Shown piece after piece: positions 14,710-47,427 of a stretch of 64,000 nucleotides of DNA. Position 1 is the stretch's first letter, and each line of letters starts with the position of its first letter. This stretch comes from Escherichia phage YX22. The DNA is taken from the sequence record OR776998. The stretch is one strand, 5' to 3'. A program made the position numbers and the translations under genes. The notes beneath the pieces were generated by a model. That model saw only the letters and a program-made list of their open reading frames with translations. It had not been told where the DNA came from and ran no database searches.

Positions 14710-14774
14710 TTGATCTCACTTAACAGAGACGACGCCCTGTTGGGATTTAAAGCGGTCTTCACAGACATCAGGTT

Positions 14775-14802
14775 TCCCTCAAAACAGGGGAGTCTCCTCC
14801 CC
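14775..14802 (-). terminator. Hairpin terminator immediately downstream of the NAMPT-like gene
   Basis: On the minus strand: GGGGAG-GAGA-CTCCCC stem-loop followed by TGTTTTGAGG; separates the NAD operon from the vWA/ACP-like cassette. Confidence 0.55.
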
Positions 14803-14810
14803 TTCGGTTA

Positions 14811-16475
14811 TCAGATTTGTGAGGCCAGTTCTGTCACCAGAGGAGCGGCACGAACACGCGCATCTTCCAGAGTTTGGGTGTTGAAGAACTCGCCATCACG
14901 ATACACCAATTGGTGCTGGTTGTCGGCGTCTTGCACCTGATCAAAAGTGATACCGTCAACCAACACTAGTTTACCCTGAGGGTCTTTAATGACTTTAAGG
15001 AAACCACGCGCAGACTTTTTAGTCCCGCCTTTATCGGTCTTCGGCTCTTTGAAGATCTCACGGAATTCACCGTTCACTTTACCAGCCGTGGCTTTCACTG
15101 CTGTGCCAGTACTGTCACGGGTGTTCATCTGGTAGGTGTAGGAACCGATACCGAACACCGCGTTGATGGAAGCGAAGTTCCGGTCAGCCAGACGGCTAAA
15201 GATCTGGTCTTCACGCGCCAGGGTGATAGAATCACCGTAGATCAGGCCGATGTGCTCATCCAACAGGAAGTGCCCAGTTTCAGTCTGGGTGCCACCAAAG
15301 ATCTCCCACAGGCGCTGGATAGAGCCGACCGCTTCTGAACGGCTGATGATATTACGGTCATCTGCCATCAGAGAGTTGATCGTGCCTTCGCCTGTGATCA
15401 GGTGATAGGTGTTCGTCTCTTCGATGTGGATAACTTCGGTGCTGCTAGACACGCCGCTGATGTTCAGCGTAGCGCGGTCTTTGAACCCCTCGATGCGGTA
15501 GCCGCCGACGATGTGTACAGGGTCGCCCGAGTCAGGGCGGATCACGACTTTACCATTGCGCGCCATGATAATGTCTTTCAGGCGAGGGAGATAGTCGTCG
15601 ATGACCTGCCAGTAATCCCACGCATCAGACACGATGCTGACGATGCCATCAGGATACACGTCCTGCACCAGGCGGCGGAAGGTTTCGAATTCACCATCCT
15701 TCGTGCCCATACACATCACGGCGTGTTCGGTAGCCGCAACAGAACCAGCAACGACATAATCTTCGTCGATGTCTGCGCCATAATACTCTTCTACGAAGTC
15801 CAGGGCAGGGTTGGTATCGGTGCCTTTGAAGAACACCAGATGACCGGAACCGGAAGACGCGGCATCATGCCACCCGCTCATACCACGAAAGGAGAAGTCG
15901 TGGCCTTGGTAGTCGATGAACCAATGGTCCGGTGATACTCCCGTAGCGAGGGCAGCTTTCACCATCAGTGCCTTGTAATGCAGAGCGATGGTGGCGTTCG
16001 TCATCGGCTTCCAGATCTCAGAGCTGAACACAGTCTCCAGATAGTTGGTCAACCAGTAGAACTCCGGCAGGGTATTGAACATCACATACACCGGAACGCC
16101 ATACGGGCACATGGTGCCTTCAGGCAGCGCACGGACTTCGATAGGCAGGTAGCCGAGGTCATGCAGGGCTTCAATATGCTCTGTGCCGACGCGGCCTGGA
16201 CCCAGGACTTTGTTCATGCGACGGGCATACTTCTTCAGCACCTTGTCCTTCGGGCGCTGGAAGAATGCTTCGTCAAACAGTTCGTGGAACCAGGTCATGA
16301 AGCCCTGGATGCCCCAGACCACCACGCCGTTCTTCGGCAGGTGAGAGTTGAACAGTTTGTTAGAGCGCGGAGTTCCGTTGGAGAACACCAGCTCACTGCC
16401 TTCAGGGAACTGATAGATGTGCCCCGATTTGTAGAAGTCGATCGCATGGATTGGGTCTAAGTGGCGCATGCTCAT
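14811..16475 (-). CDS. Nicotinamide phosphoribosyltransferase family protein (NadV/NAMPT-like; candidate Namat of a NAD+ reconstitution pathway)
   Basis: 554 aa with NAMPT-like length and conserved blocks (FKGTDT, GSYTYQ, GLIYGDSIT); ATG start overlaps the stop of the Prs-like gene (ATGA). Confidence 0.8.
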   Translation of the reverse strand: MSMRHLDPIHAIDFYKSGHIYQFPEGSELVFSNGTPRSNKLFNSHLPKNGVVVWGIQGFMTWFHELFDEAFFQRPKDKVLKKYARRMNKVLGPGRVGTEHIEALHDLGYLPIEVRALPEGTMCPYGVPVYVMFNTLPEFYWLTNYLETVFSSEIWKPMTNATIALHYKALMVKAALATGVSPDHWFIDYQGHDFSFRGMSGWHDAASSGSGHLVFFKGTDTNPALDFVEEYYGADIDEDYVVAGSVAATEHAVMCMGTKDGEFETFRRLVQDVYPDGIVSIVSDAWDYWQVIDDYLPRLKDIIMARNGKVVIRPDSGDPVHIVGGYRIEGFKDRATLNISGVSSSTEVIHIEETNTYHLITGEGTINSLMADDRNIISRSEAVGSIQRLWEIFGGTQTETGHFLLDEHIGLIYGDSITLAREDQIFSRLADRNFASINAVFGIGSYTYQMNTRDSTGTAVKATAGKVNGEFREIFKEPKTDKGGTKKSARGFLKVIKDPQGKLVLVDGITFDQVQDADNQHQLVYRDGEFFNTQTLEDARVRAAPLVTELASQI

Positions 16476-17326
16476 TTTACACGTCCTGTATTTTCAGTTT
16501 TGAAAGGAAGCCCGTCGGCGGTGATGTTCTCCCACCAGACAGTGTCGGCATACACAGCATCATAGATCCCGTCGAAAACAGAGAGACCTTTGCTGAAGAT
16601 GCCATGGGTAACGAAGAGCGTCATGTGCTTAGGCTTGTGCTTCTGAAGCTCTTTGCCTAACTCAACGAACGTGCGCCCACCGTCGCAGATATCATCGACC
16701 ACCACCAGATAGCGGTCTTTGATCAGTTCAGGGTTCGTAATACTCACCCCAATGATCTCACCAGTCTTGGTGTCACGGTTCTTGTGACCGTAGACAACAG
16801 GAACACCGTCCAACGACAGACTGAGGGCTTCGGTCTTCTTAGCCGCGCCGCCGTCAGGGGCTACCAACACAGCGTTGTTCCCACGGATGAACCAGCCCAG
16901 ATACTGACGCACGATGTAATCTTGCGGGACAACATGGACGTTGTTGATCAGAGAAGACACAACATGGCTGTGAGGATCTTTGATCGCCACGCGGTCAAAG
17001 TTCATGCTATTGATGAACTCAGCCGCCCACTTCACAGACAGAGGCTCACCGAAGTCACAATGGCGGTCCTGGCGAGCATACGGGAAGTAAGGGATATACG
17101 CATGGAATGTCGTCAGACGGTCCACGTTACTCAGACCACGAACGGCGTTTACCAGAAGCGCCAGCTCAATGAAGTCGGCTGATGATTTGATGTGAGCATC
17201 AATCACCACGTTCTGAACGTGGCCGATAGGGATACCAGACTTTTGGATCTTAATATGTTCCTCACCACCTGGGAAGGTGAAGTGTTTGTAGAACACATCT
17301 TGGTCGTTCAATTTCAAACGAAACAT
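16472..17326 (-). CDS. Ribose-phosphate pyrophosphokinase (Prs) family protein (candidate Adps of a NAD+ reconstitution pathway)
   Basis: 284 aa; PRPP-binding signature LVVVDDICDGGRTF and Prs-like N-terminal half; translationally coupled to the NAMPT-like gene. Confidence 0.8.
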   Translation of the reverse strand: MFRLKLNDQDVFYKHFTFPGGEEHIKIQKSGIPIGHVQNVVIDAHIKSSADFIELALLVNAVRGLSNVDRLTTFHAYIPYFPYARQDRHCDFGEPLSVKWAAEFINSMNFDRVAIKDPHSHVVSSLINNVHVVPQDYIVRQYLGWFIRGNNAVLVAPDGGAAKKTEALSLSLDGVPVVYGHKNRDTKTGEIIGVSITNPELIKDRYLVVVDDICDGGRTFVELGKELQKHKPKHMTLFVTHGIFSKGLSVFDGIYDAVYADTVWWENITADGLPFKTENTGRVK

Positions 17327-20973: not shown

Positions 20974-22194
20974 TTATTCAGGTTTCTTCAAACGGTCCAG
21001 CAAATTGACGGAACCACGTTTGAGCACGACTTCATCACAGCGCTTTTTGTATTCCCCACCGCCGTCATATCCAACCTTCCCGCGCGGTTTTTTACCTTTC
21101 TGTATGGCCTCTACACAACGGGTGTACTTGCTCAGTTCACAGAACATGTTCTCCAGCTGCATAACGTTCATGCACTGATCTACAGGCTCTTCGGCCGACC
21201 AGAATTTCTCGCGAACATACCCATATTGGGAGTACACTGCGTCCTGGTTGTCCCGTAGCCAGAAGATGCATTCTTCGTGGGTCATGCCATCTTTGTCCTG
21301 GAACATCAGATCAATCCCTGCGCGACAGCCTGGTCCAGCAACCGTGAAGTGGTTCTCACTGAAAGGATATCCAGGAATGTACGTGAAATCAACCCAGATC
21401 TGGTAGGCCAGGAATGGACCAAGCCCTTCGATGTCGTCATACATGCGCTGGTATACTTCCAGAGGAGTACCAAGGCGCAGCAAGTCATGGAAATAGTTTG
21501 GATACTTGTTGGCGAATGCCTTCAGGGAACGGATAACACGCATTGGCATGTACGGCTCCCAGCCTTCTATGGTGTAGAAGTCCGGCTCTGCTTCAGCAAT
21601 AGCCTTGGCTTCCTTATAATCCATGTTCTGGGTCGAACCGTCCTTACAGATCAGGTTCACCATCATCCCACCGAAGCGCTGCTCTTTGTGGTTGACAACC
21701 AACTCAGGGAAAGCCAGGCATTGCTTCAGACCACCTGTGTTGAAGGCATTGGTGAATACTTTACCGCCGTCGGCCTCGAACTTCTGAAGTCGTTCGCGGG
21801 TTGCGTCAAGGTTGATCTTGGCGAATTCTTTGATCGTCATCGCGCCGCCGATAGCCTGAATTGGATCCCAGAGGTTGAACATGCGAAACATCACGCAGTT
21901 GAACATCTTGTCGGCCATACCCAGAGCATCGTTGTTGACGATGTTGTTGATCAGGTTGAGAGACTGCCTGTCGTGCTCTCTCCGGACGTTACAGAACTTG
22001 ACCTGCCGTAATATGGAATTATCAGTCCAAGGAGCAGGAAGGCGCTGGACGTCCTTCTTGACGTGGATCTGATAACGATCGCGCATCCATTCGTAAGACA
22101 GGCAGGTATGGGTCGGACTGAGAACCGGTTTGGCCGACTTTATCTTTTCTTCACGGACACCGCAGTACGGGACGTCTAGGGCTTTATCTTTCAT
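20974..22194 (-). CDS. Hypothetical protein (406 aa), function unassigned
   Basis: Long ORF with ATG start; no confident motif; possibly a nucleotide or DNA-modification enzyme (speculative). Confidence 0.55.
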   Translation of the reverse strand: MKDKALDVPYCGVREEKIKSAKPVLSPTHTCLSYEWMRDRYQIHVKKDVQRLPAPWTDNSILRQVKFCNVRREHDRQSLNLINNIVNNDALGMADKMFNCVMFRMFNLWDPIQAIGGAMTIKEFAKINLDATRERLQKFEADGGKVFTNAFNTGGLKQCLAFPELVVNHKEQRFGGMMVNLICKDGSTQNMDYKEAKAIAEAEPDFYTIEGWEPYMPMRVIRSLKAFANKYPNYFHDLLRLGTPLEVYQRMYDDIEGLGPFLAYQIWVDFTYIPGYPFSENHFTVAGPGCRAGIDLMFQDKDGMTHEECIFWLRDNQDAVYSQYGYVREKFWSAEEPVDQCMNVMQLENMFCELSKYTRCVEAIQKGKKPRGKVGYDGGGEYKKRCDEVVLKRGSVNLLDRLKKPE

Positions 22195-24072: not shown

Positions 24073-25062
24073 TCACTTCCACTTGATGTTGAGCATGACA
24101 TTGGTCAGGAAAAACACAGCATGCAGCCAGACATCGCCGACTTGACGGTGTTCAATCTGAGACTGACCACATACGCATACTAGATCAGGGATAGACTCAT
24201 TCTGAACCAACATTTGCTTCTCTTTATCCTGTGGTACACAGAACTGGAAGAAGCGGGAATAGAAGTCTTCAGTGATATAGTTCTGGTTGTCGGTCACCCA
24301 CTGCTTCATCCCAGCCCAGTCATTATCCTTCAACATATTCACCAACATGCCCATATCGGCCGATTTTAACACAGCCAGTGCACGTTCGTCGATCTTGCCG
24401 TAAGTGGTGACGTTATCCTGTAGAACACCCATGATGCGGCGGTTATCAGGGAAATGGCGCTTGACAATAGCAGCCAACACAGGAGGGTCATACTCAACAC
24501 CTTCGCAGCGAAGGATTTCAGCACAGCGGCGCATGAACTGAAGTTTGACCTCATCAGCCTCGGTCTCATTCCAGATAAAGTCGATTTCACGGCAACGAGA
24601 GCGCAGAGGTTCGTTCACACGTTGCTTGGCGTTGGTGGTCAAGATGAATGAACAGTTCTTGGAGACCTTCTCCACAATACCCTTCAGCGACTCCTGTGCC
24701 GCCATAGACAGACGCTCTACTTCGTCGAGGATAACGACTTTGCGGCCACCGAATACGCTCACACCAGTAGAGTACTGAATCACGCGGTCACGGATAACGT
24801 CGATGCTGTTGTCCAGGGATGCGTTGATCATCAGTGGTTGCTTACAACCGATTTCATTACACACGGCCAGGGCGGAGGTAGTCTTGCCAGTACCAGGCTG
24901 AGGGGAGTAGAACAGCATAGACGGGATGTTGCCGTTGCCGCTGGTGATGTAGCCATGGATTTTAGCGCGGACGTCTTGAGGGATGATAATCTCGTCCAGG
25001 TTGTCAGGGCGGAAACGGTTCTCCCAGGCGTACTGGTCTTTTACAATCGTGATATTAGACAT
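24073..25062 (-). CDS. 44: Clamp-loader large subunit gp44 (AAA+ ATPase)
   Basis: 329 aa; Walker A SPQPGTGKTTSALAV; Walker B ILDEVE; its ATG overlaps the stop of the upstream homing endonuclease gene by 1 nt. Confidence 0.9.
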   Translation of the reverse strand: MSNITIVKDQYAWENRFRPDNLDEIIIPQDVRAKIHGYITSGNGNIPSMLFYSPQPGTGKTTSALAVCNEIGCKQPLMINASLDNSIDVIRDRVIQYSTGVSVFGGRKVVILDEVERLSMAAQESLKGIVEKVSKNCSFILTTNAKQRVNEPLRSRCREIDFIWNETEADEVKLQFMRRCAEILRCEGVEYDPPVLAAIVKRHFPDNRRIMGVLQDNVTTYGKIDERALAVLKSADMGMLVNMLKDNDWAGMKQWVTDNQNYITEDFYSRFFQFCVPQDKEKQMLVQNESIPDLVCVCGQSQIEHRQVGDVWLHAVFFLTNVMLNIKWK

Positions 25063-25718
25063 TATGTATTTCCATGATATAGTTTACAGAACAGAACCCA
25101 AGCGTCGTCATCATACGGGTTCCAGCCCTCTTTGAATTTGTTTAACATACTCGTTGCGGTGTTCTCTTTGATAGAGAACAAACGGGCAATTCTATGGCAC
25201 CCATCACCAGTAGAAACCCAGTGATCATACACTACCCCAGCCTTTAACCACATCGGTCTGGTGTTGTGTAGCAGCGCAGCCCCGGTGTCCCAGGGTTTTA
25301 TTCCTGCGGCGGGGTGGCTTTTACCAGTTCTTCCGTGCATGGGATGAAGATTCCCAGACTTACCCTTCAACCAACTCGAGACACCAACTCGGTGATGTTT
25401 GGGTCCCGCTGACCTACCGTTGGCGATACCACAACCCAGTGGCTGAAATGATTTGTTTAAACATTTTGGGTGATCAATGTTCTCACTAATCAACTGCTGC
25501 TCTCTCCAATATGCTTCTTCTGGGGAGTCAAACAGTTCTACGAATTCTACATCAAAGAAATCAGAACCTTTCTTAGATATGATTTCCTTGACTGTTTGTG
25601 AAGAAGTGAAATATGAAGTGAACAATTGTAAAGGATGTGCACCCAATTTCGTTCTAGAACCAAAATAGAAAGAACCATCCTTCCCTAACAAATGATATAC
25701 AAACGGTTGGTTCCTCAT
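25062..25718 (-). CDS. GIY-YIG family homing endonuclease (Seg-like), free-standing between genes 45 and 44
   Basis: ATG at 25718 preceded by GAGG (5-nt spacer); N-terminal PFVYHLLGKDGSFYFGSRT (GIY...YIG module); C-terminal basic G/K/H-rich repeats resembling NUMOD-like DNA-binding motifs; T4 has rpbA at this position. Confidence 0.65.
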   Translation of the reverse strand: MRNQPFVYHLLGKDGSFYFGSRTKLGAHPLQLFTSYFTSSQTVKEIISKKGSDFFDVEFVELFDSPEEAYWREQQLISENIDHPKCLNKSFQPLGCGIANGRSAGPKHHRVGVSSWLKGKSGNLHPMHGRTGKSHPAAGIKPWDTGAALLHNTRPMWLKAGVVYDHWVSTGDGCHRIARLFSIKENTATSMLNKFKEGWNPYDDDAWVLFCKLYHGNT

Positions 25719-25751
25719 TTCAGCCTCGTGTAGAAGAATCATTTCAAATAG

Positions 25752-25770
25752 GCGGGGAACGCCCCCGCCC
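25752..25770 (-). terminator. Hairpin between gene 45 and the homing endonuclease gene
   Basis: Stem GGCGGGG/CCCCGCC with 5-nt loop, followed on the minus strand by TATTTGAAATG; a TGcTATAAT-like -10 sequence sits just upstream on the minus strand (about 25775-25786). Confidence 0.5.
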
Positions 25771-25799
25771 ACACATTATAGCATCAGGCTGGAGATTGA

Positions 25800-28725: not shown

Positions 28726-28738
28726 ATGGGGTATTTAG
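28726..28738 (-). promoter_or_regulatory. Late-promoter-like element CACTAAATACCCCAT (minus strand)
   Basis: Variant of the T4 late core; about 25 nt upstream of the uvsW start (T4 uvsW is late-expressed). Confidence 0.5.
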
Positions 28739-29481
28739 TGATCCGGCCAGACTCCGTTTTGTTCTTTATCCATGCGATGATACAGACGAACACGCTCAAA
28801 CATCTTTGTCAGAATGTCATCACGGTTGAACTCAATGACGGTTGGTAGAGGGGAAGACTCGTTGGCGATCACGTTGATGAGGCGGGTGATCTTGACGCCG
28901 AACATCTGCTGGAACATGACCGAATATAAGCATAGCTGGATACTGTAATCCTCGATCATGCCCCGCGTCTTCATGGTGTTCGATGTCTTGAAGTCGATGA
29001 CAGCAGGTTTACCCTCATAAACCCCGATAAGGTCTACACGACCTGCAAGACCAAGCACCTCGCTATATAATGGGATCTCCTGAGCATAGATCTTTGTCAT
29101 CTTGTTCAGGTAAGGGAACAGCTGCTTGAACATGAACATGTATTCGCCAGCCGCTTCCAACACTTCTTTCATTGGGCGGTTCTTTAGATACAGTTCACAC
29201 GCAAGGTGCAGCTTCTCCCCTCGGTCAGCACAGCGCATGGTCTCAAGGTCAGCGGCCTCTGCGCCCAGCTTCTTCCTCCAAGACTCAAGCCATTCATGAT
29301 CTCCAGTGCGTCCCAGCATAGTCGTGACGGATGTCAGTTTTACACCAGACGGTGAAACGTAATGACGACCATTCTCCGTCGTAACACACTCCAGTTCCTT
29401 GTAAGGAAGTTCGTATTGCTGGAATGTGTAATGACGGTTTTCGAAGTCGTTCAGCTTGCGTAGATCTTGGAGGGATGCCAT
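28735..29481 (-). CDS. PD-(D/E)XK superfamily nuclease (RecB/Cas4-like fold)
   Basis: 248 aa; GRVDLIGVYEGKPAVIDFKTSN carries the D...E-x-K catalytic signature; lies between uvsY and uvsW. Confidence 0.5.
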   Translation of the reverse strand: MASLQDLRKLNDFENRHYTFQQYELPYKELECVTTENGRHYVSPSGVKLTSVTTMLGRTGDHEWLESWRKKLGAEAADLETMRCADRGEKLHLACELYLKNRPMKEVLEAAGEYMFMFKQLFPYLNKMTKIYAQEIPLYSEVLGLAGRVDLIGVYEGKPAVIDFKTSNTMKTRGMIEDYSIQLCLYSVMFQQMFGVKITRLINVIANESSPLPTVIEFNRDDILTKMFERVRLYHRMDKEQNGVWPDH

Positions 29482-34383: not shown

Positions 34384-35853
34384 GTTCAAGACATATTTGA
34401 TCAGTCCACAATTCCAAATCCTGACCAACCCGGCTTCGGTTGCTAATTGGCTTTCTGTTTTGCCTTCTACGTCATACCCCATGCGAGCAAATGAACCTTT
34501 TCTGAAACCGAATTTGTGCTCACGCATAAATGTGCCAGGCTTGTGATATTTGTAGTCTGGCTTCTGTACTTCCTCTTCTACGAATCCGTGGGATAGGTAA
34601 ATGTTGGACAACCTGCTTACAACACACCTATCCCCAAAGGAATAGATTTTGGTGCCGGTAAATTTTCTTCTGAAGTGTGAAAGAAGTTTACTGAATGCCC
34701 CGTGGCAATCATTAGAGGCAAATCTGACTAATTCCAGGCCATCTTTCCTTTTAGTGAATAGCATCACGGCTTGTATGGCCCCACTCTTGTCAATTAACGA
34801 CAAATGGTGGGTGGAAGAAACGGAACCTTGTATGTGGTGGTTGTCTAAAAACTCCCTCAAGCCGCTTATATTTCCCCAAACGACTTTGTGTTGGCGAGCA
34901 TATGACGCAGGCGTTTTAATTCCAAGTTTAGCTTTCAGAAGAGATTTTACCACTTCCTGTTTCTCAACCCATTCATCTTCCCAGATGTGGATCAACTGGA
35001 TACCCTGAGTTTCACATATTTCAGTCTTTTCCAGGTGATAATGTTTCTCTTTAAAAACTTCTGAATGCCAGTACAGGCCATTAAATTCAATCGCCAATTT
35101 GTGTTCAGGGCAATAGATATCCAGTTGTTTACCGGATAATATACTGTAATCAGAAACAGTGTTTACAACTCCCATTGATGTGAGAAACTCGGATATTTCC
35201 TTTTCATAAGAAGATTTCTTGTTCCTGATAGAACCATTGCTGAACAACGCACGTTTTAGTATGTTCGAATTTTTCATAGGGTTGTCAACACCATAACGTT
35301 CTTGTAACGTTGCCAACGCCTTCTCCCTCACACCAGGTAATTGTAGTGTGGAGCAGCTTCCGTATTTGGATATATTCGAAGTCTCTATGGCTTTCCGACC
35401 AATCCCACCTTTACACATAGAAACCTGATAACATTCTTCAGAACAATATGTTCTGTAATCTTTATTATTGATGTAAAAGTTGGTTTCCTTGGAACACACC
35501 GGGCATATTTTCACGGTTCTATTGTACAGCCAAGCTGTGACTTTACAAGCCAAATCTTGTAGGGTGTTGTGGGTATTGGCGAACACTAAAAGGTCTACAT
35601 TGATGTGCTTCATAAGCAGTTCAGATTTGCATTTTTGGATATCCAATTTGTTGTTCTTGGTAAACATATATTTGTAGAAAAATTGGCGATATGATTCCTC
35701 GTCAGACAATTCATTCACTGCTTCAAGGAAACCTTCCGGGAGGTTCTTTAGGGTGTTCGATGCGAAGGTCTTGCAAGCATCTGAACAAAATTTCTTATCT
35801 TTCCTGGATGCTTTGAACTGTTCATGGCAGACACTACAGATTACCTGATACAT
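34381..35853 (-). CDS. Putative homing endonuclease with Vsr-like PD-(D/E)XK domain and N-terminal zinc fingers
   Basis: ATG at 35853 with SD GGAGGAG; N-terminal CxxC...CxxC pairs (CSVCHEQ...CSDACK; CPVCSKE...CSEECY); central DIYCPEHKLAIEFNGLYWHSE resembles the Vsr/DUF559 motif (FVDGCFWH); inserted just downstream of gp23. Confidence 0.55.
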   Translation of the reverse strand: MYQVICSVCHEQFKASRKDKKFCSDACKTFASNTLKNLPEGFLEAVNELSDEESYRQFFYKYMFTKNNKLDIQKCKSELLMKHINVDLLVFANTHNTLQDLACKVTAWLYNRTVKICPVCSKETNFYINNKDYRTYCSEECYQVSMCKGGIGRKAIETSNISKYGSCSTLQLPGVREKALATLQERYGVDNPMKNSNILKRALFSNGSIRNKKSSYEKEISEFLTSMGVVNTVSDYSILSGKQLDIYCPEHKLAIEFNGLYWHSEVFKEKHYHLEKTEICETQGIQLIHIWEDEWVEKQEVVKSLLKAKLGIKTPASYARQHKVVWGNISGLREFLDNHHIQGSVSSTHHLSLIDKSGAIQAVMLFTKRKDGLELVRFASNDCHGAFSKLLSHFRRKFTGTKIYSFGDRCVVSRLSNIYLSHGFVEEEVQKPDYKYHKPGTFMREHKFGFRKGSFARMGYDVEGKTESQLATEAGLVRIWNCGLIKYVLN

Positions 35854-39470: not shown

Positions 39471-41165
39471 TTATTCTTCACCACCAGGAGGGTTAGTCGC
39501 TGGGATGACGTTAGGTCTGAATTTCAGTGGACTGACTTCCCCGCTGCCGAAGCCGCCGGACTCATCTGCCTGTACTTCAGGATATTTGCCTTCTTTCTTC
39601 TCTTTCGCGATCTTCTCTTGCTGGTCTTTGATGTCTTCATCAGACATGCGCAGCAGATTGCGTTGAGCAAAATCGATAGAGAAGAGAGTGCCGATATATG
39701 GTTCGATCTGACCGAGAGCCGCCATACGCTGCGACAAGATTTCGTTCTCTTGTTGTTCACGGATGAAGCTGTCAGAAGTGAATTCGAACTTGACGAACGG
39801 CTTGATCTTCTCATTCCAGTCAGCCTGGTCTGTAATGCCTTTTAATATCAGATGGCGACGCAGAAGTTCCAGGAAGATACCAGAAGAATAACGACGGCGC
39901 AGGCTCGCACAGAACTTGTTGAAGCGCAATTCTTCCTGCGTAATTTCAGCAAGATTGGAACCACCGATGTTGATGGAACCTTCCTCTTGCAGGCGGCTCT
40001 TAGGGATCATCAGAGCCTCGTAGAGTTTCTCGCGGAAGTATACCACATGATCCATTTGACCCAGTTGGTCGCCACCGCCTACGTTGGAGATCTCGGTTGC
40101 GTTCTGTCCTTCGCGACGTGGTAGCCAGTAGTCCTCAGCGATACCCATCAAATGAGTGTTACCAGCCACCTTACCAGTGGTGCGATCATACGCCAGACGG
40201 TTCTTGAATTTGCCCATCATGGCTTGCATGTATTCTTCGGCCGACTTCTTACCCAGCGTACCCACGTCGAGATAGAACGCTCGCTTCTCAGGAGCACGTG
40301 TGATCGCATAGATCACCGTTGCATCTTCAGTTGTAACAAGGTTGTTCAGGGGACGGATAGCTGGGTTCAGCAGGCTTGGTACAACCCCATTCGCCAGAGG
40401 CTCTTCACCACTGTCCAGATACACTATGCTCTCATCATCAAACACCAGCTCTTGCTGTGACGGTTGGAAGTTCTGAGACGTACCGGACTGGCCAGTGAAT
40501 TGGTTGCGGTTGTAGTTCGGGTTGTAGTAGTATTGAAGTTTTACGTCATTGATGACTTCGATACCGTCGCGCATCGCTTTTTGAACGATGTACACTGGGC
40601 GGATACAGCGTGAGTCCATCATGATGAGTTTGGCGATACCCGCTTTCTTGTTCTTCGGGTCCACTACAACGTGGAATGCCTGACGGCCTTCAATATACCA
40701 TTTGCGGATCTTCTGATACGCCGTGTTGTCAAAGTCAAGGAGATGCATGATCTCTTTGAATGCGTCAGTGATCTTCTCTTTGACTTCGTCTGTGATGCCA
40801 TCTACCTTTTCCAGGTTGATGGTTACAGGAGTCTCTTCCTCTTCACAGGTGACGATGTCGTTGACAATGATATCCACAGCTTTACGAATCTCAGGCTGCT
40901 GAGCCATAGACTGGTACTCTTCGACCAGCTGTTTGACGTTGAGCAACTCATTCTCAACACCAACGAAATTGAATGTGTTCGCGCCGCCCTGGAGGATGAT
41001 CGAGCCATCCTGAGAATCGTCCAGCGCAACAACAGTCGCTTTTGAAAGCAACTTCTCTTCTTGGTTCGTGACCATCTTGTCGGTATCAATCGGCGCTTCT
41101 ACTTTGCCGCCTCTACCGAACAGGCCGAAGAACCCATTTCCGAATGCACCATTTCCGAATGCCAT
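39471..41165 (-). CDS. 20: Portal vertex protein gp20
   Basis: 564 aa, ATG start; size and position (upstream of 67/68/21/22/23, downstream of 19) as in T4. Confidence 0.85.
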   Translation of the reverse strand: MAFGNGAFGNGFFGLFGRGGKVEAPIDTDKMVTNQEEKLLSKATVVALDDSQDGSIILQGGANTFNFVGVENELLNVKQLVEEYQSMAQQPEIRKAVDIIVNDIVTCEEEETPVTINLEKVDGITDEVKEKITDAFKEIMHLLDFDNTAYQKIRKWYIEGRQAFHVVVDPKNKKAGIAKLIMMDSRCIRPVYIVQKAMRDGIEVINDVKLQYYYNPNYNRNQFTGQSGTSQNFQPSQQELVFDDESIVYLDSGEEPLANGVVPSLLNPAIRPLNNLVTTEDATVIYAITRAPEKRAFYLDVGTLGKKSAEEYMQAMMGKFKNRLAYDRTTGKVAGNTHLMGIAEDYWLPRREGQNATEISNVGGGDQLGQMDHVVYFREKLYEALMIPKSRLQEEGSINIGGSNLAEITQEELRFNKFCASLRRRYSSGIFLELLRRHLILKGITDQADWNEKIKPFVKFEFTSDSFIREQQENEILSQRMAALGQIEPYIGTLFSIDFAQRNLLRMSDEDIKDQQEKIAKEKKEGKYPEVQADESGGFGSGEVSPLKFRPNVIPATNPPGGEE

Positions 41166-41199
41166 GATTAAGTCCTCAACATTTTCTTGTAATTAGTGA

Positions 41200-41217
41200 G
41201 GGGGAATAAGATCCCCC
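41200..41217 (-). other. Hairpin between gp19 and gp20 (GGGGGA/TCCCCC stem)
   Basis: Read directly; no strong T-run, so more likely an RNA structural element than a terminator. Confidence 0.35.
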
Positions 41218-41230
41218 AGCACTGAGGACA

Positions 41231-41764
41231 TTAGAGAGACTTGTCTGAGATGGCCTGGAAGTAACGCAGGTCAACAGTGAACTGAGTATAAGAGTCCATT
41301 GCAGACATGTCCAGTTCCAGCTGACCGAGGTTCTGAGGCCAGGTGCCCTGAAGGGTCCAGGTCTTGGTGACGTTGTCATTCGCATCCAGCAGTTCCATGA
41401 TTACATCACGGAAATAATCATCTGGGTTAGCAGACGCACGGTTGTTGTTGCTGCCGTTGATGTACTGCTGCCAGACTTCGAATGCGTTGTACGGGGCGTT
41501 GTCCACGACGTTGATGAACGTCACAGGCAGCGCCTCGAAACGACGGTCACCTGGGAATGGAAGTTCACGACCACCCCATGGGACGAGTATTTCTCCGAGC
41601 TGGCCTGTTGGGGTATTTGTGGTCACCGCCAACAGCGAAACATCACGGATAGTATCGCTTCCAGCCACGAAGGAAGGGAAGTTAACAGTCACACGCCAAC
41701 GGTGTTGGCGCTGAACGCCACCCCCGCGTGACATAGCTGCTCTGAATTCATTAACTGTAGCCAT
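41231..41764 (-). CDS. 19: Tail tube protein gp19
   Basis: 177 aa; size and position between sheath and portal genes as in T4. Confidence 0.8.
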   Translation of the reverse strand: MATVNEFRAAMSRGGGVQRQHRWRVTVNFPSFVAGSDTIRDVSLLAVTTNTPTGQLGEILVPWGGRELPFPGDRRFEALPVTFINVVDNAPYNAFEVWQQYINGSNNNRASANPDDYFRDVIMELLDANDNVTKTWTLQGTWPQNLGQLELDMSAMDSYTQFTVDLRYFQAISDKSL

Positions 41765-41784
41765 TATAGATTCTCCAGAAAGAG

Positions 41785-42498
41785 TTACACAATTCTAATT
41801 AGCTGCCAACCCGTCGTGTTCAAACGCTCTGCGGTCGCAGTTTTCCTATGATACACAGACGGTGGTGGAACTGGAATACCCTTGTCGATGTAATCATAGA
41901 GTGCTGAATATTTAAGTCCCAACCTCTCCACATATTCACGACAGTTCCCGTGGATTTCGTGTTCTTCACCGGAAGGAGATACCAATTTGAATCGCTTTGC
42001 ATGACCGTTGTTCTTGCCCTTTCTGATTCCAGTTTCAATGCATTTTCGACTAAATGATAATTTACCTTCTTCTTTCCATTCAACCCCGATCCGACAGCTA
42101 ATGATTTCTCCTGTTTTCCACCGTGGATCATCGCAATCAACTAAACCGAGATGTTCACCAGTAGAAGTCAAAACTGCTCCGTGTTTATTGGAAAATGTGG
42201 ACCCGTCTCCACCCCAGGTCTTGTTGTACCCTTTCTGAGTTGACATGTGGGTTCCGTGTTGCTTTATAAGAATGATTTCCAATTCTTTTAGATCTTCCAG
42301 GGATTTGGTCTGGGCTAACACTTGAACAGAAAAGGACTCTTCTCCGTACTTTCTTATTGCTTGGTGAATAAAGTAATCAGATCCCTTCTGAGCACTATTG
42401 CAGTGCTCCCACCACCTTTGCATAGGGTCTCTCGTCGTTATCCCAATATAGGCTTTCTGATTTACTAGATTTGTAATTTTGTAAACACTTCCGATCAT
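41785..42498 (-). CDS. GIY-YIG family homing endonuclease, free-standing between gp18 and gp19
   Basis: 237 aa; N-terminal SVYKITNLVNQKAYIGITTRD...RWWEH is a textbook GIY-YIG module; C-terminal basic region. Confidence 0.8.
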   Translation of the reverse strand: MIGSVYKITNLVNQKAYIGITTRDPMQRWWEHCNSAQKGSDYFIHQAIRKYGEESFSVQVLAQTKSLEDLKELEIILIKQHGTHMSTQKGYNKTWGGDGSTFSNKHGAVLTSTGEHLGLVDCDDPRWKTGEIISCRIGVEWKEEGKLSFSRKCIETGIRKGKNNGHAKRFKLVSPSGEEHEIHGNCREYVERLGLKYSALYDYIDKGIPVPPPSVYHRKTATAERLNTTGWQLIRIV

Positions 42499-42580
42499 TT
42501 CGATGCTCTCTCAGTAAAATCGTTCCATTTTAACCCGCGAGAGACCATTGAAATGCCCTCCGAAGAGGGCATGGGGTAAA

Positions 42581-44476
42581 TTAAGAAGCGGCTACGATAC
42601 CACCACCGGATTCGATCTCACTGAATTCCATGTCTGGACGCACGGAAGCAAAATCAAGATACACCCAATTTATACTGTATTCTGGTTTCAGCCAGATACC
42701 CGCGACCATGGTGTTGGCTGCGATAACATCAGCGGTGTTGTTGTCCTCGTCACACTTCACCATCCCGTCATAGATCGCGCCCATGTTGGCCAACTGGCGG
42801 ATATATGGGCGGACAGCGTTGCTGAACAACCCACGAGTGAATGCATCGTTGTTCTCACCAAGGTAGTATTTGGCGATGGCTGCGATGTTCTGCTCTGCCA
42901 TAATGAACAGACCACGAACGTTGATGCGGTCGAACGCAGATGGGCGGGTCAGACCAGTCTTGTCGCCGTACAACACGATGCCTTCGTTGGAGAAGGTGAC
43001 GATGCTGTTTATCTGGTTGCGATACAGCACAGCACGCTCATCAGAAGACGCAGACCACGCCATTCGATTATAGTTGTTGTATTTACCACGGTTGTGGAAC
43101 GCCGGAGATTTGTAGATACCCGCGATTTCAATGCTTCGCGCCCAAACACCTGCGGTGCCACCACAAGCCGGAATCCAACGCATTTTGTCGTTGTACTTGT
43201 CGTACACATACGCCCAGTTGTCATCCATGAAGAAGTAGGAGGAGTCGCGAACAAGGCTTTCACGCCAGGCCACAACATCATCCATCTCACGGCCACGGTT
43301 TCCGACGACCGTATCGCGAAGAGGAGACACGAAGGACACTGTGTCTTTACGCTCAGTGGACAGGTCGATCAGTGCCTGCTGCTCAATCAGTTCTTCACAG
43401 AAACCGAACACTGGCTTGGCATCATACGCTTCGGCGTTGTTCAGTGCCTGGATAGCCGCAACACGGTTCCCAGTGTAATCGTCTACACCACCTTCGAGTT
43501 CAATCACACCAGCAGCCAGGGTAGTGGCGAAGGTGTACACCCAATTTGAGTTGCCGTTGATCACGTCTTTGAAGTACGCATTGGATCCATCAGATTTCTT
43601 AGAACCCTGAGCGGTCTGCACCAGTTCATACTTCTCGATGATCGTACCGGAAGCACCAACAGTGGTGACGGCAGCGGTAGCAGTCAGACCATTCGCGTCT
43701 GGAACAATCGCAGTCGCAGCCTGAGGACCGATTGCTTTGTGAGTGACGGTGACGGTGTTGGACTTCACGACAACAGAAGAATACACGTCAGTCAGAGCCG
43801 TCAACGCAGTGCCGATTTTGGTCGCCAGGGTGGCCGGGGTGTCAGTGTCAGTGTACGCCACGTCTTCGCCAGCAACAGAGATTGAGCCTGCACCAGTAGC
43901 CGTACCGGATACAGAGATACGATCAACCTGACCAACAGCACCGGAAGAATCTGTGATGCGACCTACTTTGTCAACGATGGCGATATGGTACTCGCCATCC
44001 TGCGGAGCATATGCGAAGTTGTTACGGAATTCCCAGGTCGGGAACAGCGCAGCGTCACAGATGTTCACAGCAATGTCGTTACCCAGAGAGCCAGCATAGC
44101 GGCCTGTCCAGGTAATAGACGCAGATGGGGACGCAGTTTCGAAGTCTAGTTTGTTGCGGATAAGGATTGCAGTCTGACCTTTGGTTACAGCGTTGCGTGC
44201 CGCCGGACCGACCACACGGGTCACCCATGCAACAGAGCTGTAAGACAGGAAGTCAGCAATCACCAAGAAGTCGGTGGCAGTTGCATCGTTTGGCTTGAAG
44301 AATTTCTTCACCAGACCAGTTTCGCCACCAGTGACCAACACAGGGAGTTCTGCTTCACCCCATTGGAATTTGCCGACAGTCGCACCCTGAACAACAACGG
44401 ATGGAGACGTCTGAAGCGTGGCATCACGCTCAGTCCACTGTACGGACGGCGCAACGCTGAAGCTTTGAGTTGCCAT
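42581..44476 (-). CDS. 18: Tail sheath protein gp18
   Basis: Internal ATG at 44476 (MATQSFSVAPSVQW...); C-terminal motifs YDKYNDKMRW, VLYGDKTGLTRPSAFDRINVRGLF and NDAFTR match T4 gp18 (YDKYNDVNRW, VLYGDKTATSVPSPFDRINVRRLF, NNAFTR). Confidence 0.9.
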   Translation of the reverse strand: MATQSFSVAPSVQWTERDATLQTSPSVVVQGATVGKFQWGEAELPVLVTGGETGLVKKFFKPNDATATDFLVIADFLSYSSVAWVTRVVGPAARNAVTKGQTAILIRNKLDFETASPSASITWTGRYAGSLGNDIAVNICDAALFPTWEFRNNFAYAPQDGEYHIAIVDKVGRITDSSGAVGQVDRISVSGTATGAGSISVAGEDVAYTDTDTPATLATKIGTALTALTDVYSSVVVKSNTVTVTHKAIGPQAATAIVPDANGLTATAAVTTVGASGTIIEKYELVQTAQGSKKSDGSNAYFKDVINGNSNWVYTFATTLAAGVIELEGGVDDYTGNRVAAIQALNNAEAYDAKPVFGFCEELIEQQALIDLSTERKDTVSFVSPLRDTVVGNRGREMDDVVAWRESLVRDSSYFFMDDNWAYVYDKYNDKMRWIPACGGTAGVWARSIEIAGIYKSPAFHNRGKYNNYNRMAWSASSDERAVLYRNQINSIVTFSNEGIVLYGDKTGLTRPSAFDRINVRGLFIMAEQNIAAIAKYYLGENNDAFTRGLFSNAVRPYIRQLANMGAIYDGMVKCDEDNNTADVIAANTMVAGIWLKPEYSINWVYLDFASVRPDMEFSEIESGGGIVAAS

Positions 44477-44516
44477 AATCTTATTCCTTCTCTGTAGAGT
44501 TTCGCTCAATTTGAAA

Positions 44517-44526
44517 GATATTTAGT
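44517..44526 (-). promoter_or_regulatory. Late-promoter-like element (GATCACTAAATATC) upstream of gp18
   Basis: CTAAATAT core about 45 nt upstream of the gp18 ATG, between the gp17 stop and the gp18 start. Confidence 0.45.
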
Positions 44527-44528
44527 GA

Positions 44529-46739
44529 TCACCGTCTCAGCCATTCTTCCATAGACATACCAGAGCGTTCATCATAAACCTGAATTCCACCGAACCCTGA
44601 GATGTTCTCCACAGAGTGAGGATCTGGCGTCGACATCATACCCCCAAATGGTAGCATCTGAGATTCTTCCATCGCAGACAACCGTCCTCTCATGTCCACA
44701 GAGATATTTGAATTGGTGAGATCACTAAACCATTCTTGTTTCACCGCCCATGCATACAACACGAGGGGCATTACACAGTCATCATGACAACCATCATCGG
44801 CTTCATACCTTGTTCCAGTCCATACGAATGTACTGAGTTCATCTATCGTGTCCTGGTCATCTATCACCAGCATTTCACGTTCAATCAGGGCTTTCAGGTT
44901 GGCACAGCCGTTTGTGCGCACCTTCTTGTTGGTATTGATACCAGGTTCAGGGCGGCGACCACCGATTCTCTTGCCTGTACCCTTGGTATCTGTTGTGGTG
45001 AAGATGATCTCTGGATATTCAATTTCTTGGTATAGAATTGTGATTACCTGACCACCCACGTCGTTGTTGGTCTCGACTAGCATCGGGCACGTTCCATACT
45101 TCTCACCCATATCGGCGATTGTGTACGCATACATCATTGGAGGTATCGTGTTATTTCGATACTTGGCTGCGATCTTGTGAGGATAGTCTGTGATGTCGAT
45201 AATGGTCAGCACAGAATAATCCCCTTCGACACCCTTGCCTGTATCTGCGATACCCATATAGATGCGCTTAGGATCGTAGTCGTGATAAATCTTGGTGAAC
45301 TCGTTCGGCTCCTGATACAGCTTCGAGGTCATCTTGTCCAGACACTTGGCAGGTATCAGTGATCCCACAGAACCACGGAACTTAATGCCAAATTCTTGAT
45401 CGAAACGTGCATCACCCAGCTTCGCCCTTTGTTTGGATTCCCAGTCTGGATCTTTGGTGTACGTTGGAACACGATACCATGGGACCTCGGTGAGTTTGAA
45501 GTCGTTGTATTGTGGGTGTTCTGGGTTCGCCTTGGTGACGATGTCGTAGAACAACCCGCGCTGACCTTTCGGCGTACTGGTCAGAATACAACGTGAAGTC
45601 TCTGCAGATGCAATCGCCGGGAATGTAGACTCCCAGAATTCAAAGTCGTTTTCAATGAACGCCACTTCGTCCACATACAGGAGCGATACAGATCGACCAC
45701 GGATGGAGTCGGAAGATGTCGCATAGGCGTAGATCTTTGATCCGTTTTCGAACTCTATCAGCGTGGAACCGAACTTCTCACAACCCTGTTGGAGGAAGAA
45801 TGGCAAATCTTGATATGCTTTGCGAATACGATCTAGGATTTCAATCGCCTGCTTCTCTTTGTTCGCCAGTACTGCGATCTCTTTGTCGGAGTGGAACATC
45901 GCATACCAGAGCAGGAACGCTGCCACGACAGTCGTGTTGTGGCTGAGGAAGCCGTTGGTGTAGTAGCGCTGATCACTAGATTTCACCTGTAGGTCATACA
46001 TGTGATGCGTCTCACCAGTCTGCCAAACCTCACGGATTTCTTCTGGACCTTCTGACGTCATGATGTATGACCCAGCATTCAGGTCTTTGGCAAATATCTC
46101 CTTCATTTCCGGAGTGAAGAATATATGTTCGTCGGCCACGTTAATTCGCCGCCCAGTAACAGTCACAATAACGAATTCCGCATATTTCTTCGTCTTATGC
46201 GCTGCGATAACCGGAACCCAGCCACTATCGGATTGCACAAAGTAACGTTTGCCGAAGCGGCTGTCCACGAACTTGTCATGGTTGCCAATGGTATTCAGCG
46301 GCACAGCGTGGTTGACGTCCTCGAAGCGGCTGTGAAGCTCCCCTATGGTCAGGAGCAACTGCTCTTGGCTGAGAGTATCGTAAACTGTGACAAGCGTGTC
46401 ACCTTTTACACATTTCCCAGACTGACGAGCCTGGACGACCGCATTGAATCGATAGTCCTGGAAGTCATGGAACAACTGCTTCTGGTAATCGTGCATGTCA
46501 AAGAGGATGAAGCCTTTATCGATGGTCGTGATCTTGTAGTAGTTGGCGGCGAAGTAATGGGCGTCCATCGCACACTCGACGAACTCCGATTCTTGTTCGT
46601 CGGTTAGCATCAACTCCACACGAGGTGCACGCACAGACGGCTTGCGCATGAACGTTTGGTCCATACGCAGTCTGACGTCTTCTGTCTTAAACCCCGTCTT
46701 GAGCGGGGCGTATTCTACATCACGCTTCTGATACGCCAT
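44529..46739 (-). CDS. 17: Terminase large subunit gp17, interrupted by a mini-intein
   Basis: Track ORF starts at GTG (46748); ATG at 46739 (MAYQKRDV...) with AAGGAAGAAGGTG upstream. Exteins join as ARQSGK|TTVVAAFLLW, matching T4 gp17 Walker A SRQLGKTTVVAIFLAHF; C-terminal nuclease region matches T4 (HDDCVMPLVLY versus HDDLVMSLVIF). Confidence 0.9.
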   Translation of the reverse strand: MAYQKRDVEYAPLKTGFKTEDVRLRMDQTFMRKPSVRAPRVELMLTDEQESEFVECAMDAHYFAANYYKITTIDKGFILFDMHDYQKQLFHDFQDYRFNAVVQARQSGKCVKGDTLVTVYDTLSQEQLLLTIGELHSRFEDVNHAVPLNTIGNHDKFVDSRFGKRYFVQSDSGWVPVIAAHKTKKYAEFVIVTVTGRRINVADEHIFFTPEMKEIFAKDLNAGSYIMTSEGPEEIREVWQTGETHHMYDLQVKSSDQRYYTNGFLSHNTTVVAAFLLWYAMFHSDKEIAVLANKEKQAIEILDRIRKAYQDLPFFLQQGCEKFGSTLIEFENGSKIYAYATSSDSIRGRSVSLLYVDEVAFIENDFEFWESTFPAIASAETSRCILTSTPKGQRGLFYDIVTKANPEHPQYNDFKLTEVPWYRVPTYTKDPDWESKQRAKLGDARFDQEFGIKFRGSVGSLIPAKCLDKMTSKLYQEPNEFTKIYHDYDPKRIYMGIADTGKGVEGDYSVLTIIDITDYPHKIAAKYRNNTIPPMMYAYTIADMGEKYGTCPMLVETNNDVGGQVITILYQEIEYPEIIFTTTDTKGTGKRIGGRRPEPGINTNKKVRTNGCANLKALIEREMLVIDDQDTIDELSTFVWTGTRYEADDGCHDDCVMPLVLYAWAVKQEWFSDLTNSNISVDMRGRLSAMEESQMLPFGGMMSTPDPHSVENISGFGGIQVYDERSGMSMEEWLRR
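45936..46412 (-). mobile_element. Mini-intein (159 aa, Hint domain only) inserted in the terminase Walker A motif
   Basis: Begins with Cys immediately after GK (CVKGDTLV...) and ends with HN before Thr (...GFLSHN|TTVV); block-B-like GRRINVADEHIFF; no endonuclease domain by length. Confidence 0.8.
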
Positions 46740-47427
46740 TGTCTTCACCTTCTTCCTTCGGCTGCGGCTCGGCCTGAACGTCGATTACATCTTCTTCGGG
46801 TTCAGGTCCTTTGGACGCAGCTTTCGCTGCAGCACGTTCTTCAGCACGTTTACGGGCGTCTTCGATGGTCTTCAGTAGATCACGGGAAGACCTGGCCTGT
46901 TTACCGACGTTGACCGTGGTTGTGCCATCAGGGGACGTGGTGACCTCGACGGTTGTTTCATCTCCAGGAGGTGGCTCTCTGTCGCCCGTGACCGCCTTGA
47001 TAGTTTTCTGGTTCTCCATCAGGTCTTTGTTCAGGCCGCGCATGAGTTCACCCAACTCTTTGAAGACTGTAAAGGCACGGGGTGCTTCAGTCGTCGTCGC
47101 AAGTTTGGCTGCCTGTCCCATCATGAACATCGTGGCTTCCTGCATGGCATAAGTCGTGTCACGGATGCGTTTGTAGTCGGTGGTGGCATCAGTGTCTTCG
47201 AAGTCTGGAACCTTAGACTCCTTGGGCTTCAGCTCTTCTGGGTCCAATGAAGGAGGAAACACCACAGGCTCATACCCCGCAGGCTTTTCACCCAACCATT
47301 CGCCTGTATCCGGATCGTAATCTTTTCCGGCCATAGGCGAGGTCTTCTCCATGACTTCTTGAGCGACCTCATCCCGCGCTTGGATAGCACTGAGGGTGGA
47401 TAATAGGCGTTCTGACATAGCACTCAT
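46720..47427 (-). CDS. 16: Terminase small subunit gp16
   Basis: Track ORF starts at TTG (47433); ATG at 47427 (MSAMSERLL...) with GGAG 8 nt upstream; central DYKRIRDTTYAMQEATMFMMGQAAKLA parallels T4 gp16; overlaps the gp17 start. Confidence 0.7.
   Translation of the reverse strand: MSAMSERLLSTLSAIQARDEVAQEVMEKTSPMAGKDYDPDTGEWLGEKPAGYEPVVFPPSLDPEELKPKESKVPDFEDTDATTDYKRIRDTTYAMQEATMFMMGQAAKLATTTEAPRAFTVFKELGELMRGLNKDLMENQKTIKAVTGDREPPPGDETTVEVTTSPDGTTTVNVGKQARSSRDLLKTIEDARKRAEERAAAKAASKGPEPEEDVIDVQAEPQPKEEGEDNGVSEA

Follow-up and report, generated by a model that had tools for sequence, protein, structure and literature searches.

The presence of a 237-codon reading frame between the tail sheath and tail tube genes of Escherichia phage YX22 raises the question of what the encoded protein is, how its gene came to occupy this position and whether it is still able to move. 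Free-standing homing endonucleases of the GIY-YIG family form a textbook class, and an earlier note on this DNA, made from the letters alone, had called the frame a GIY-YIG homing endonuclease. The analysis covers a stretch of 64,000 nucleotides (sequence record OR776998), referred to here as the window; the features discussed are collected in Table 1.

The frame runs from ATG to TAA over 237 codons on the minus strand, and its translation opens MIGSVYKITNLVNQKAYIGITTRD. It matches the Pfam GIY-YIG family (PF01541) at 36.7 bits over residues 3-83 (E=5.4e-9; cut-off 22.6 bits), and its best PHROG match is PHROG 314, 'homing endonuclease', over residues 1-235 (E=8.7e-39). All four of the PHROG families matched are labelled homing endonuclease. 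The matches to PF01541 and PHROG 314 indicate that this is no chance reading frame. The GIY-YIG motif quoted in the earlier note corresponds to residues 5-24, in agreement with Pfam and PHROG, and the position that it gave, between tube and sheath genes, is borne out by PHROG 45 and PHROG 23 on either side. The GC content of the gene is 0.43, versus 0.53 in each of the tail tube and tail sheath genes.

Both neighbouring genes are intact, and the endonuclease gene is intergenic, with the sheath terminator on one side and the promoter element of the tube gene on the other, outside any intron or intein. The large terminase gene comes next upstream of the sheath gene, whose open reading frame extends over 42581..44509 (minus strand); its true start is probably the ATG at 44476, matching the annotation of RPN242. 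This relative, Escherichia phage vB_EcoM-RPN242 (Ackermannviridae, Aglimvirinae), is approximately 98-99% identical to the window, and its gp149, annotated as 'GIY-YIG endonuclease', is 99.6% identical to the protein of the window. An identical protein is held at NCBI under the name 'GIY-YIG nuclease family protein'. As both carry nuclease labels, the feature is already annotated, and the gene is a known kind of element. A GIY-YIG endonuclease is also listed between tube and sheath in PhiSH19 and Vi01 (PMC3220722). No literature was found on the cleavage, target site, mobility, biochemistry or genetics of this endonuclease family or its close homologues.

Table 1. Features of the sheath-tube locus and of other variable segments in the window
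Feature	Coordinates	Strand	Basis or remark
Free-standing GIY-YIG homing endonuclease ORF, 237 aa	41785..42498	minus	Stop codon 41785-41787; Pfam and PHROG matches
GIY-YIG catalytic domain, N-terminal, aa 1-96	42211..42498	minus	
Linker, aa 97-165, two divergent family versions	42004..42210	minus	Low pLDDT; DNA unalignable to CECAV_050, AV101
C-terminal module, aa 166-237, presumed DNA-binding	41788..42003	minus	Strand-strand-helix-helix and conserved RLNTxGW tail
Inserted cassette, ~739 bp	41806..42544	minus	Versus empty slots of Ag3, P46FS4, MK-13
Tail tube gene (gp19-like), downstream neighbour	41231..41764	minus	PHROG 45, E=4e-57; RPN242 gp148
Tail sheath gene (gp18-like), upstream neighbour	42581..44476	minus	PHROG 23, E=2e-112; Pfam sheath domains; RPN242 gp150
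Conserved CAGCTAATTAGAATTGTGTAAC element of the tube gene, late-promoter-like	41784..41805	minus	Overlapped by last endonuclease codons
Terminator-like hairpin GCCCTC-TTCG-GAGGGC, resident, after the sheath gene and just upstream of the insert	42555..42570	minus	Predicted fold; present in empty sites
Leader, predicted second stem pairing Shine-Dalgarno-like GAGAGA and AU of start codon	42497..42554	minus	MFE structures
Sheath 3' end, last ~120 nt, candidate co-conversion tract	42581..42700	minus	Diverges along with the cassette
Mini-intein-like insert, 159 aa, in Walker-A loop of terminase large subunit ORF 44529-46748	45936-46412	minus	
ORF of 236 aa between clamp-loader small subunit and sliding clamp genes	25062-25772	minus	SegE_GIY-YIG, 18 bits versus 25
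Hef/Vsr-like endonuclease gene, 490 aa, adjoining major capsid gene	34384-35853	minus	Weak MTES_1575, DUF559 and Vsr matches

The HMM and fold searches return the GIY-YIG/I-TevI catalytic fold, in favour of the earlier note, which had said that a different fold would refute its assignment. The endonuclease matches the fold of the I-TevI catalytic domain, a three-stranded sheet with helices. The catalytic set of GIY-YIG enzymes comprises, in I-TevI numbering, the Tyr of GIY, the Tyr of YIG, Arg27, His31, Glu75 and Asn90. In the window's protein, Y6, Y17, R28, H32, E74 and N92 align with these residues, and all six are invariant in 20 homologues (full-length alignment, 44-84% identity). The AlphaFold model has a mean pLDDT of 78; the N-terminal domain and the C-terminal module are confident and the linker is poorly ordered, with pLDDT below 50 at residues 99-103 and 140-167. 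A linker insert, 'CIETGIRK', is common only to a few alleles. In structure, the C-terminal module resembles the DNA-binding domains of known endonucleases only weakly; the C-terminal 133 residues alone gave no Pfam match at E<=10, and a PDB profile search with the whole family returned the I-TevI catalytic domain and noise, and nothing else. The model points to an architecture of nuclease domain, flexible linker and putative C-terminal DNA-binding module.

I-TevI, the endonuclease of the T4 td intron (PDB 1MK0 / 1LN0), has the same catalytic fold and residues, and its nuclease-linker-DNA-binding design may be common to the window's protein, to judge from the AlphaFold model. However, the window's endonuclease is not intron-encoded, the catalytic domains are about 26-28% identical, the linker shows no evident zinc finger (its two cysteines are not invariant) and sequence searches detect no homology between the C-terminal modules. 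The match to SegE_GIY-YIG (PF19835) reaches 17.3 bits, below the cut-off of 25, and the protein was not filed as SegE-like.

The point of entry can be read from empty alleles. The earlier note had proposed aligning the junction in relatives and had named a lack of endonuclease-less alleles as a refutation. Such junctions, with slots of 66-81 nt, are found in five phages of the same subfamily, EspM4VN, Ag3, MK-13, Gloob and P46FS4, which favours the note. The empty site reads ...GCCCTCTTCGGAGGGCAATTTCATTGAAGG^CACTAATTAGAATTGTGTAAC..., where ^ marks the insertion point. In sites of the Ag3 type, the order is sheath stop codon, GCCCTCTTCGGAGGGC hairpin, AATTTCATTGAAGG, CACTAATTAGAATTGTGTAAC..GGAGAATCTATA and tube ATG; in the window, the hairpin and the tube element stand on either side of the cassette. 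Since the empty sites share both bracketing elements, the cassette is located in a 13-nt spacer between the terminator and the late-promoter-like element. The sheath hairpin is found with compensatory changes (GCCCGC/GCGGGC, CCCCGC/GCGGGG) in EspM4VN, Vi01, Det7 and LIMEstone1. The idea that the GCCCTC-type hairpin travels with the cassette was rejected, as the same hairpin is present in the empty sites of Ag3, P46FS4 and MK-13.

Across the final 240 nt of the sheath gene and the initial 150 nt of the tube gene, 12 carrier and 4 empty sequences, related to one another, showed a single fixed carrier-versus-empty difference, which is not meaningful at these numbers. Because carriers and empties cannot be told apart cleanly at any position of the flanks, two possibilities are left: the target would either span the insertion point, and be destroyed by the insertion, or lie further away.

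The last 21 nt of the endonuclease frame run into the tube element, which is kept in five of the six aligned slot variants (the empty site included) and in three further empty sites; LHE287 has a CTAAATA-type element instead at the position upstream of the tube gene. The element fits the family late-promoter motif CACTAAATA / CACTAATTA, which was annotated in LIMEstone1 by its authors and also occurs in the window upstream of the sheath gene (44517-44527) and the portal gene (41186-41198), the CACTAATTA variant preceding the latter. Within the tube element, a perfect 8-bp palindrome, CTAATTAG, is present where the late-promoter motif CTAAATA is expected.

The endonuclease is probably expressed by read-through of the late sheath transcript. 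Scans of 41100-44700 were uninformative, both for sigma-70 promoters (five promoter-like sites, none standing out, versus 3.4 expected from shuffles) and for intrinsic terminators (five versus 3.3); the consensus scan missed the sheath hairpin because its T-run is weak. In the predicted fold of the leader (-30.7 kcal/mol), the terminator hairpin is followed by a stem in which UCUCUC pairs with GAGAGA and with the start codon's AU. Taken whole, the leader is no more than about 2 sd more stable than shuffled sequences (z=-2.0), and the 43-nt short sub-leader by itself has no significant fold (z=-0.6). The basal stem is retained across all 237-type alleles, including those with short leaders; RNAalifold on nine alleles found covariation at none of the 18 pairs, all of which are invariant and free of compensatory changes. 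The predicted stem probably occludes the ribosome-binding site, dampening translation. Hairpins that sequester the ribosome-binding site are established for I-TevI, I-TevII, I-TevIII, segB and Aeh1 mobE (PMC2988022), and they offer a reasonable analogy for the putative stem in this leader.

The history of the cassette differs from that of the genome around it. Over portal, tube, most of sheath and terminase, the window shares 98-100% identity with CECAV_050 and AV101, but only 39-86% in 42000-42700. The divergent tract, from ~42000 to ~42700, takes in endonuclease codons 1 to ~165 and the leader, and reaches ~120 nt into the 3' end of the sheath gene. The 70 C-terminal codons of the endonuclease remain 98-99% identical in DNA to those of the same two phages, whereas the nuclease and linker DNA of the allele carried by the window and RPN242 is ~80% identical to, or unalignable with, that of the closest backbone relatives. 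Synonymous sites of the nuclease domain are saturated (dS>1) against CECAV_050 and AV101. It is this combination of identical flanks, a tract of 39-86% identity and saturated synonymous sites that separates the two histories. The pattern shows that recombination has also taken place inside the gene, at the linker.

The divergence also extends into the sheath gene. The candidate co-conversion tract is 81-85% identical to CECAV_050, AV101 and LHE287, versus 99-100% further upstream, and across the family the last 40 sheath codons encode an almost invariant protein with DNA that is 77-88% identical. The allele of KE27 (Kuttervirus) encodes a protein 91% identical to that of the window, with flanks ~84% identical. 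Such mosaicism would be expected if cassettes recombine between genomes with some flank attached. Within the sheath gene, 43800-43999 forms a second small mosaic tract that has nothing to do with the endonuclease slot: the window is 84-94% identical there to RPN242, CECAV_050, AV101 and LHE287, versus 97-100% over the remainder of the gene. Against 10 alleles, the nuclease domain of the endonuclease gives dN/dS values of 0.02-0.04 and the C-terminal module values of 0.06-0.19; the endonuclease gene is therefore maintained by purifying selection.

In the reading that we favour with good confidence, the cassette in the sheath-tube spacer encodes a free-standing GIY-YIG homing endonuclease, akin to I-TevI and the Seg enzymes of T4, that is active and spreads by intronless homing. 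The fold, catalytic residues, point of insertion, presence/absence polymorphism, mosaicism and purifying selection are shown by the comparisons above; we infer the cleavage, target site, mobility and regulation of the enzyme, and the homing mechanism is proposed by analogy with the T4 Seg enzymes (PMC2988022). The cassette of ~739 bp would have arrived in the 13-nt spacer, interrupting neither essential gene. The overlap of the 3' endonuclease codons with the tube promoter element would make a clean deletion costly. During co-infection with a cassette-less relative, the enzyme would cut both strands of the rival genome at its empty sheath-tube junction or close to it, and recombinational repair off the carrier genome would copy the cassette, together with some flanking sheath sequence, into the rival.

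Other explanations can be weighed against the same data. It is unlikely that the protein has been co-opted by the phage, either as a weapon of marker exclusion against co-infecting phages or as a regulator binding the palindromic CTAATTAG tube element. This explanation draws on the stronger conservation of the C-terminal module than of the nuclease part among close relatives (98-99% versus ~80% in DNA), on the position of the frame, which abuts a conserved palindromic promoter-like element, and on the established precedents of I-TevI autorepression and marker exclusion (PMC2988022). However, phages with an empty slot, which do not carry the protein, have the element in unaltered form, so it is independent of the protein, and marker exclusion is a consequence of homing that needs no separate mechanism. 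A doubtful further idea is that the slot is a long-lived contest site with domain-wise replacement of cassettes, in which a foreign nuclease-linker half was joined to a resident C-terminal half, possibly a regulator acting on CTAATTAG. If this were true, the retained half could recognise that element, and the protein could also control tube expression or help to keep itself in place, in the way that I-TevI acts at its operator.

The earlier note had described the operon as otherwise invariant; this does not hold for the site itself, which is a hypervariable slot, repeatedly invaded by different mobile genes in related phages, with at least six occupancy states in the family. The survey used the joined flanks as query; 60 of the 278 family records, sampled evenly, supplied the insert sizes, and slot representatives were then inspected, with relatives fetched one by one from GenBank. 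A scan of IMG/VR yielded only eight full-length loci. Empty slots of 66-81 nt are carried by EspM4VN, Ag3, MK-13 and P46FS4. A slot of ~550 nt with a 152-aa GIY-YIG gene alone is found in Vi01 and most Kutterviruses, and slots of ~800-820 nt hold the 237-type gene in the window and in carriers of its orthologues. The two types stand in tandem, 237-type then 152-type, in slots of ~1235-1265 nt (S118, KpS110, STML-13-1 and phiMAM1), and the slot of Det7 (~1375 nt) combines a 262-aa homologue on the opposite strand with a 152-type gene. In LIMEstone1 (2110 nt), the Hef-like F-LimVIII lies on the opposite strand, accompanied by a remnant of a 237-type cassette, and in LHE287 (~1250 nt) two small non-endonuclease ORFs are found with a Hef-like remnant. 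XF4 and LIMEstone1 belong to one species and have different slot occupants.

Some of these occupants are related to the window's protein. Det7 gp5 is a full-length homologue (262 aa, 28% identity) with an NTTGW tail in common, and the 152-aa protein of the Vi01_159c type is 44% identical to residues 1-132 and has no C-terminal module. This 152-aa protein (Vi01_159c; L004 2889-3347) is the commonest slot occupant and is widely conserved in Kutterviruses; it could be a relic left by truncation or serve some other purpose. Vi01_159c, Det7 gp5 and F-LimVIII of LIMEstone1 share the insertion slot of the window's gene. Unlike that gene, Det7 gp5 and F-LimVIII are read from the opposite strand, and F-LimVIII belongs to another nuclease class (PMC3296691).

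In LIMEstone1, two pieces of the 237-type cassette remain between the tube start and F-LimVIII (L075 3139-3428), namely its GCCCTC hairpin and ~30 nt from the end of the ORF; a duplicated tube promoter of the LHE287 type, with ribosome-binding site and ATG, is fused to this remnant. It is the footprint of an endonuclease cassette replaced by another. In LHE287 (L002 4765-6014), the flanks are 95-99% identical and ORFs of 100 and 118 aa replace the endonuclease gene, each followed by a GC-rich hairpin; an opposite-strand fragment resembles the N-terminus of the Hef-like F-LimVIII.

Degenerate occupants of this kind (the Vi01-type 152-aa protein, which lacks the C-terminal module, and the remnants in LIMEstone1 and LHE287) would fit a decaying or inactive relic, that is, a former homing endonuclease that no longer cuts and is kept only by the overlap of its 3' end with the tube promoter element. 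The rarity of empty targets and the overlap of the end of the ORF with a conserved promoter-like element point the same way. Nevertheless, we consider this quite improbable for the window's gene: its ORF is full length, its catalytic residues are all invariant, and dN/dS of 0.02-0.2 with saturated synonymous sites is not expected of a relic. That it encodes a non-homing GIY-YIG nuclease with a general role, such as host DNA degradation in the manner of T4 endonuclease II, or repair, is extremely unlikely. A point against the favoured reading is that empty alleles are a minority (1 of 60 sampled records), so that the element may be close to fixation and now rarely able to home.

Among known systems, the same gene in the same slot is represented by RPN242 gp149 and its orthologues in ViI-like phages (XF4 'F-LimII', KE27 CDS0016, S118, CAU_YEP3 and AV101), which are 75-99.6% identical in protein sequence and annotated as GIY-YIG or homing endonucleases. 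Compared with the alleles of their closest backbone relatives, that of the window and RPN242 is a mosaic. The T4 Seg proteins are free-standing GIY-YIG enzymes that bring about intronless homing and marker exclusion, and the free-standing endonuclease genes of T4 are intergenic, with hairpins that sequester the ribosome-binding site and co-conversion of flanks (PMC2988022). In T4, promoters of downstream genes are embedded in the 3' end of endonuclease genes, which is thought to favour retention (PMC2988022). The window's gene resembles T4 SegA-G in being free-standing, intergenic between conserved genes, co-oriented with them and probably promoter-less, in having the promoter of the downstream gene at or inside its 3' end and in showing flank divergence consistent with co-conversion. 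However, there is no close sequence relationship (SegE_GIY-YIG, 17.3 bits versus a cut-off of 25) and the locus is another one, as none of the seg genes of T4 lies between genes 18 and 19 (Table 1, PMC2988022).

The earlier note had counted this gene as the second GIY-YIG gene of a locus heavily colonised by selfish elements. The count needs correction: the supposed first one, at 25062-25772, is only a weak SegE-like candidate under the Pfam cut-off. It lies in a ~650-bp segment missing from the otherwise 98% identical RPN242, and is probably another presence/absence endonuclease cassette. The broader view of colonisation agrees with the Hef/Vsr-like gene and the mini-intein-like insert of Table 1, but not with 28738-29481, which encodes an ordinary PD-(D/E)XK protein. 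The Hef/Vsr-like gene corresponds to RPN242 gp141, 'homing endonuclease', and occupies the same place as F-LimVII of LIMEstone1. The terminase insert (...ARQSGK/CVKGDTL...GFLSHN/TTVVAAF...) begins with Cys and ends with His-Asn, followed by Thr, and its match to Pfam Intein_splicing reaches 28.8 bits, below the cut-off of 35.8. It appears to be fixed in the family, given that the terminase gene is equally long in Vi01, AV101, KE27 and RPN242, with LIMEstone1 close to them.

Further differences from RPN242 were observed in the window. A segment at ~14760-17180 (ORFs 14811-16475 and 16472-17326, minus strand) is missing from RPN242, which in turn has ~1 kb near window position 21000 that is not in the window. 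This 2.4-kb segment (14.8-17.2 kb) was considered as a mobile endonuclease and rejected, as it encodes NAMPT-like and PRPP-synthetase-like proteins; judged by eye, the two ORFs resemble a nicotinamide phosphoribosyltransferase and a ribose-phosphate pyrophosphokinase, auxiliary genes of NAD salvage.

The finding matters little by itself, given that the class is known and that ViI-like phages are known to be rich in such genes. LIMEstone1 has 14 homing endonuclease genes, including F-LimVIII in the sheath-tube slot (PMC3296691), and Kamild has 18, with presence/absence among isolates (PMC6267328). What is added is the exact sequence of the empty site, a catalogue of at least six slot states and a clean case of domain-level mosaicism in an endonuclease gene. 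The sheath-tube locus lends itself, as a natural system, to tests of intronless homing and of competition between cassettes in phages other than T4. It also matters for the comparison of therapeutic Ackermannviridae genomes, because such cassettes make up much of the difference between near-identical isolates.
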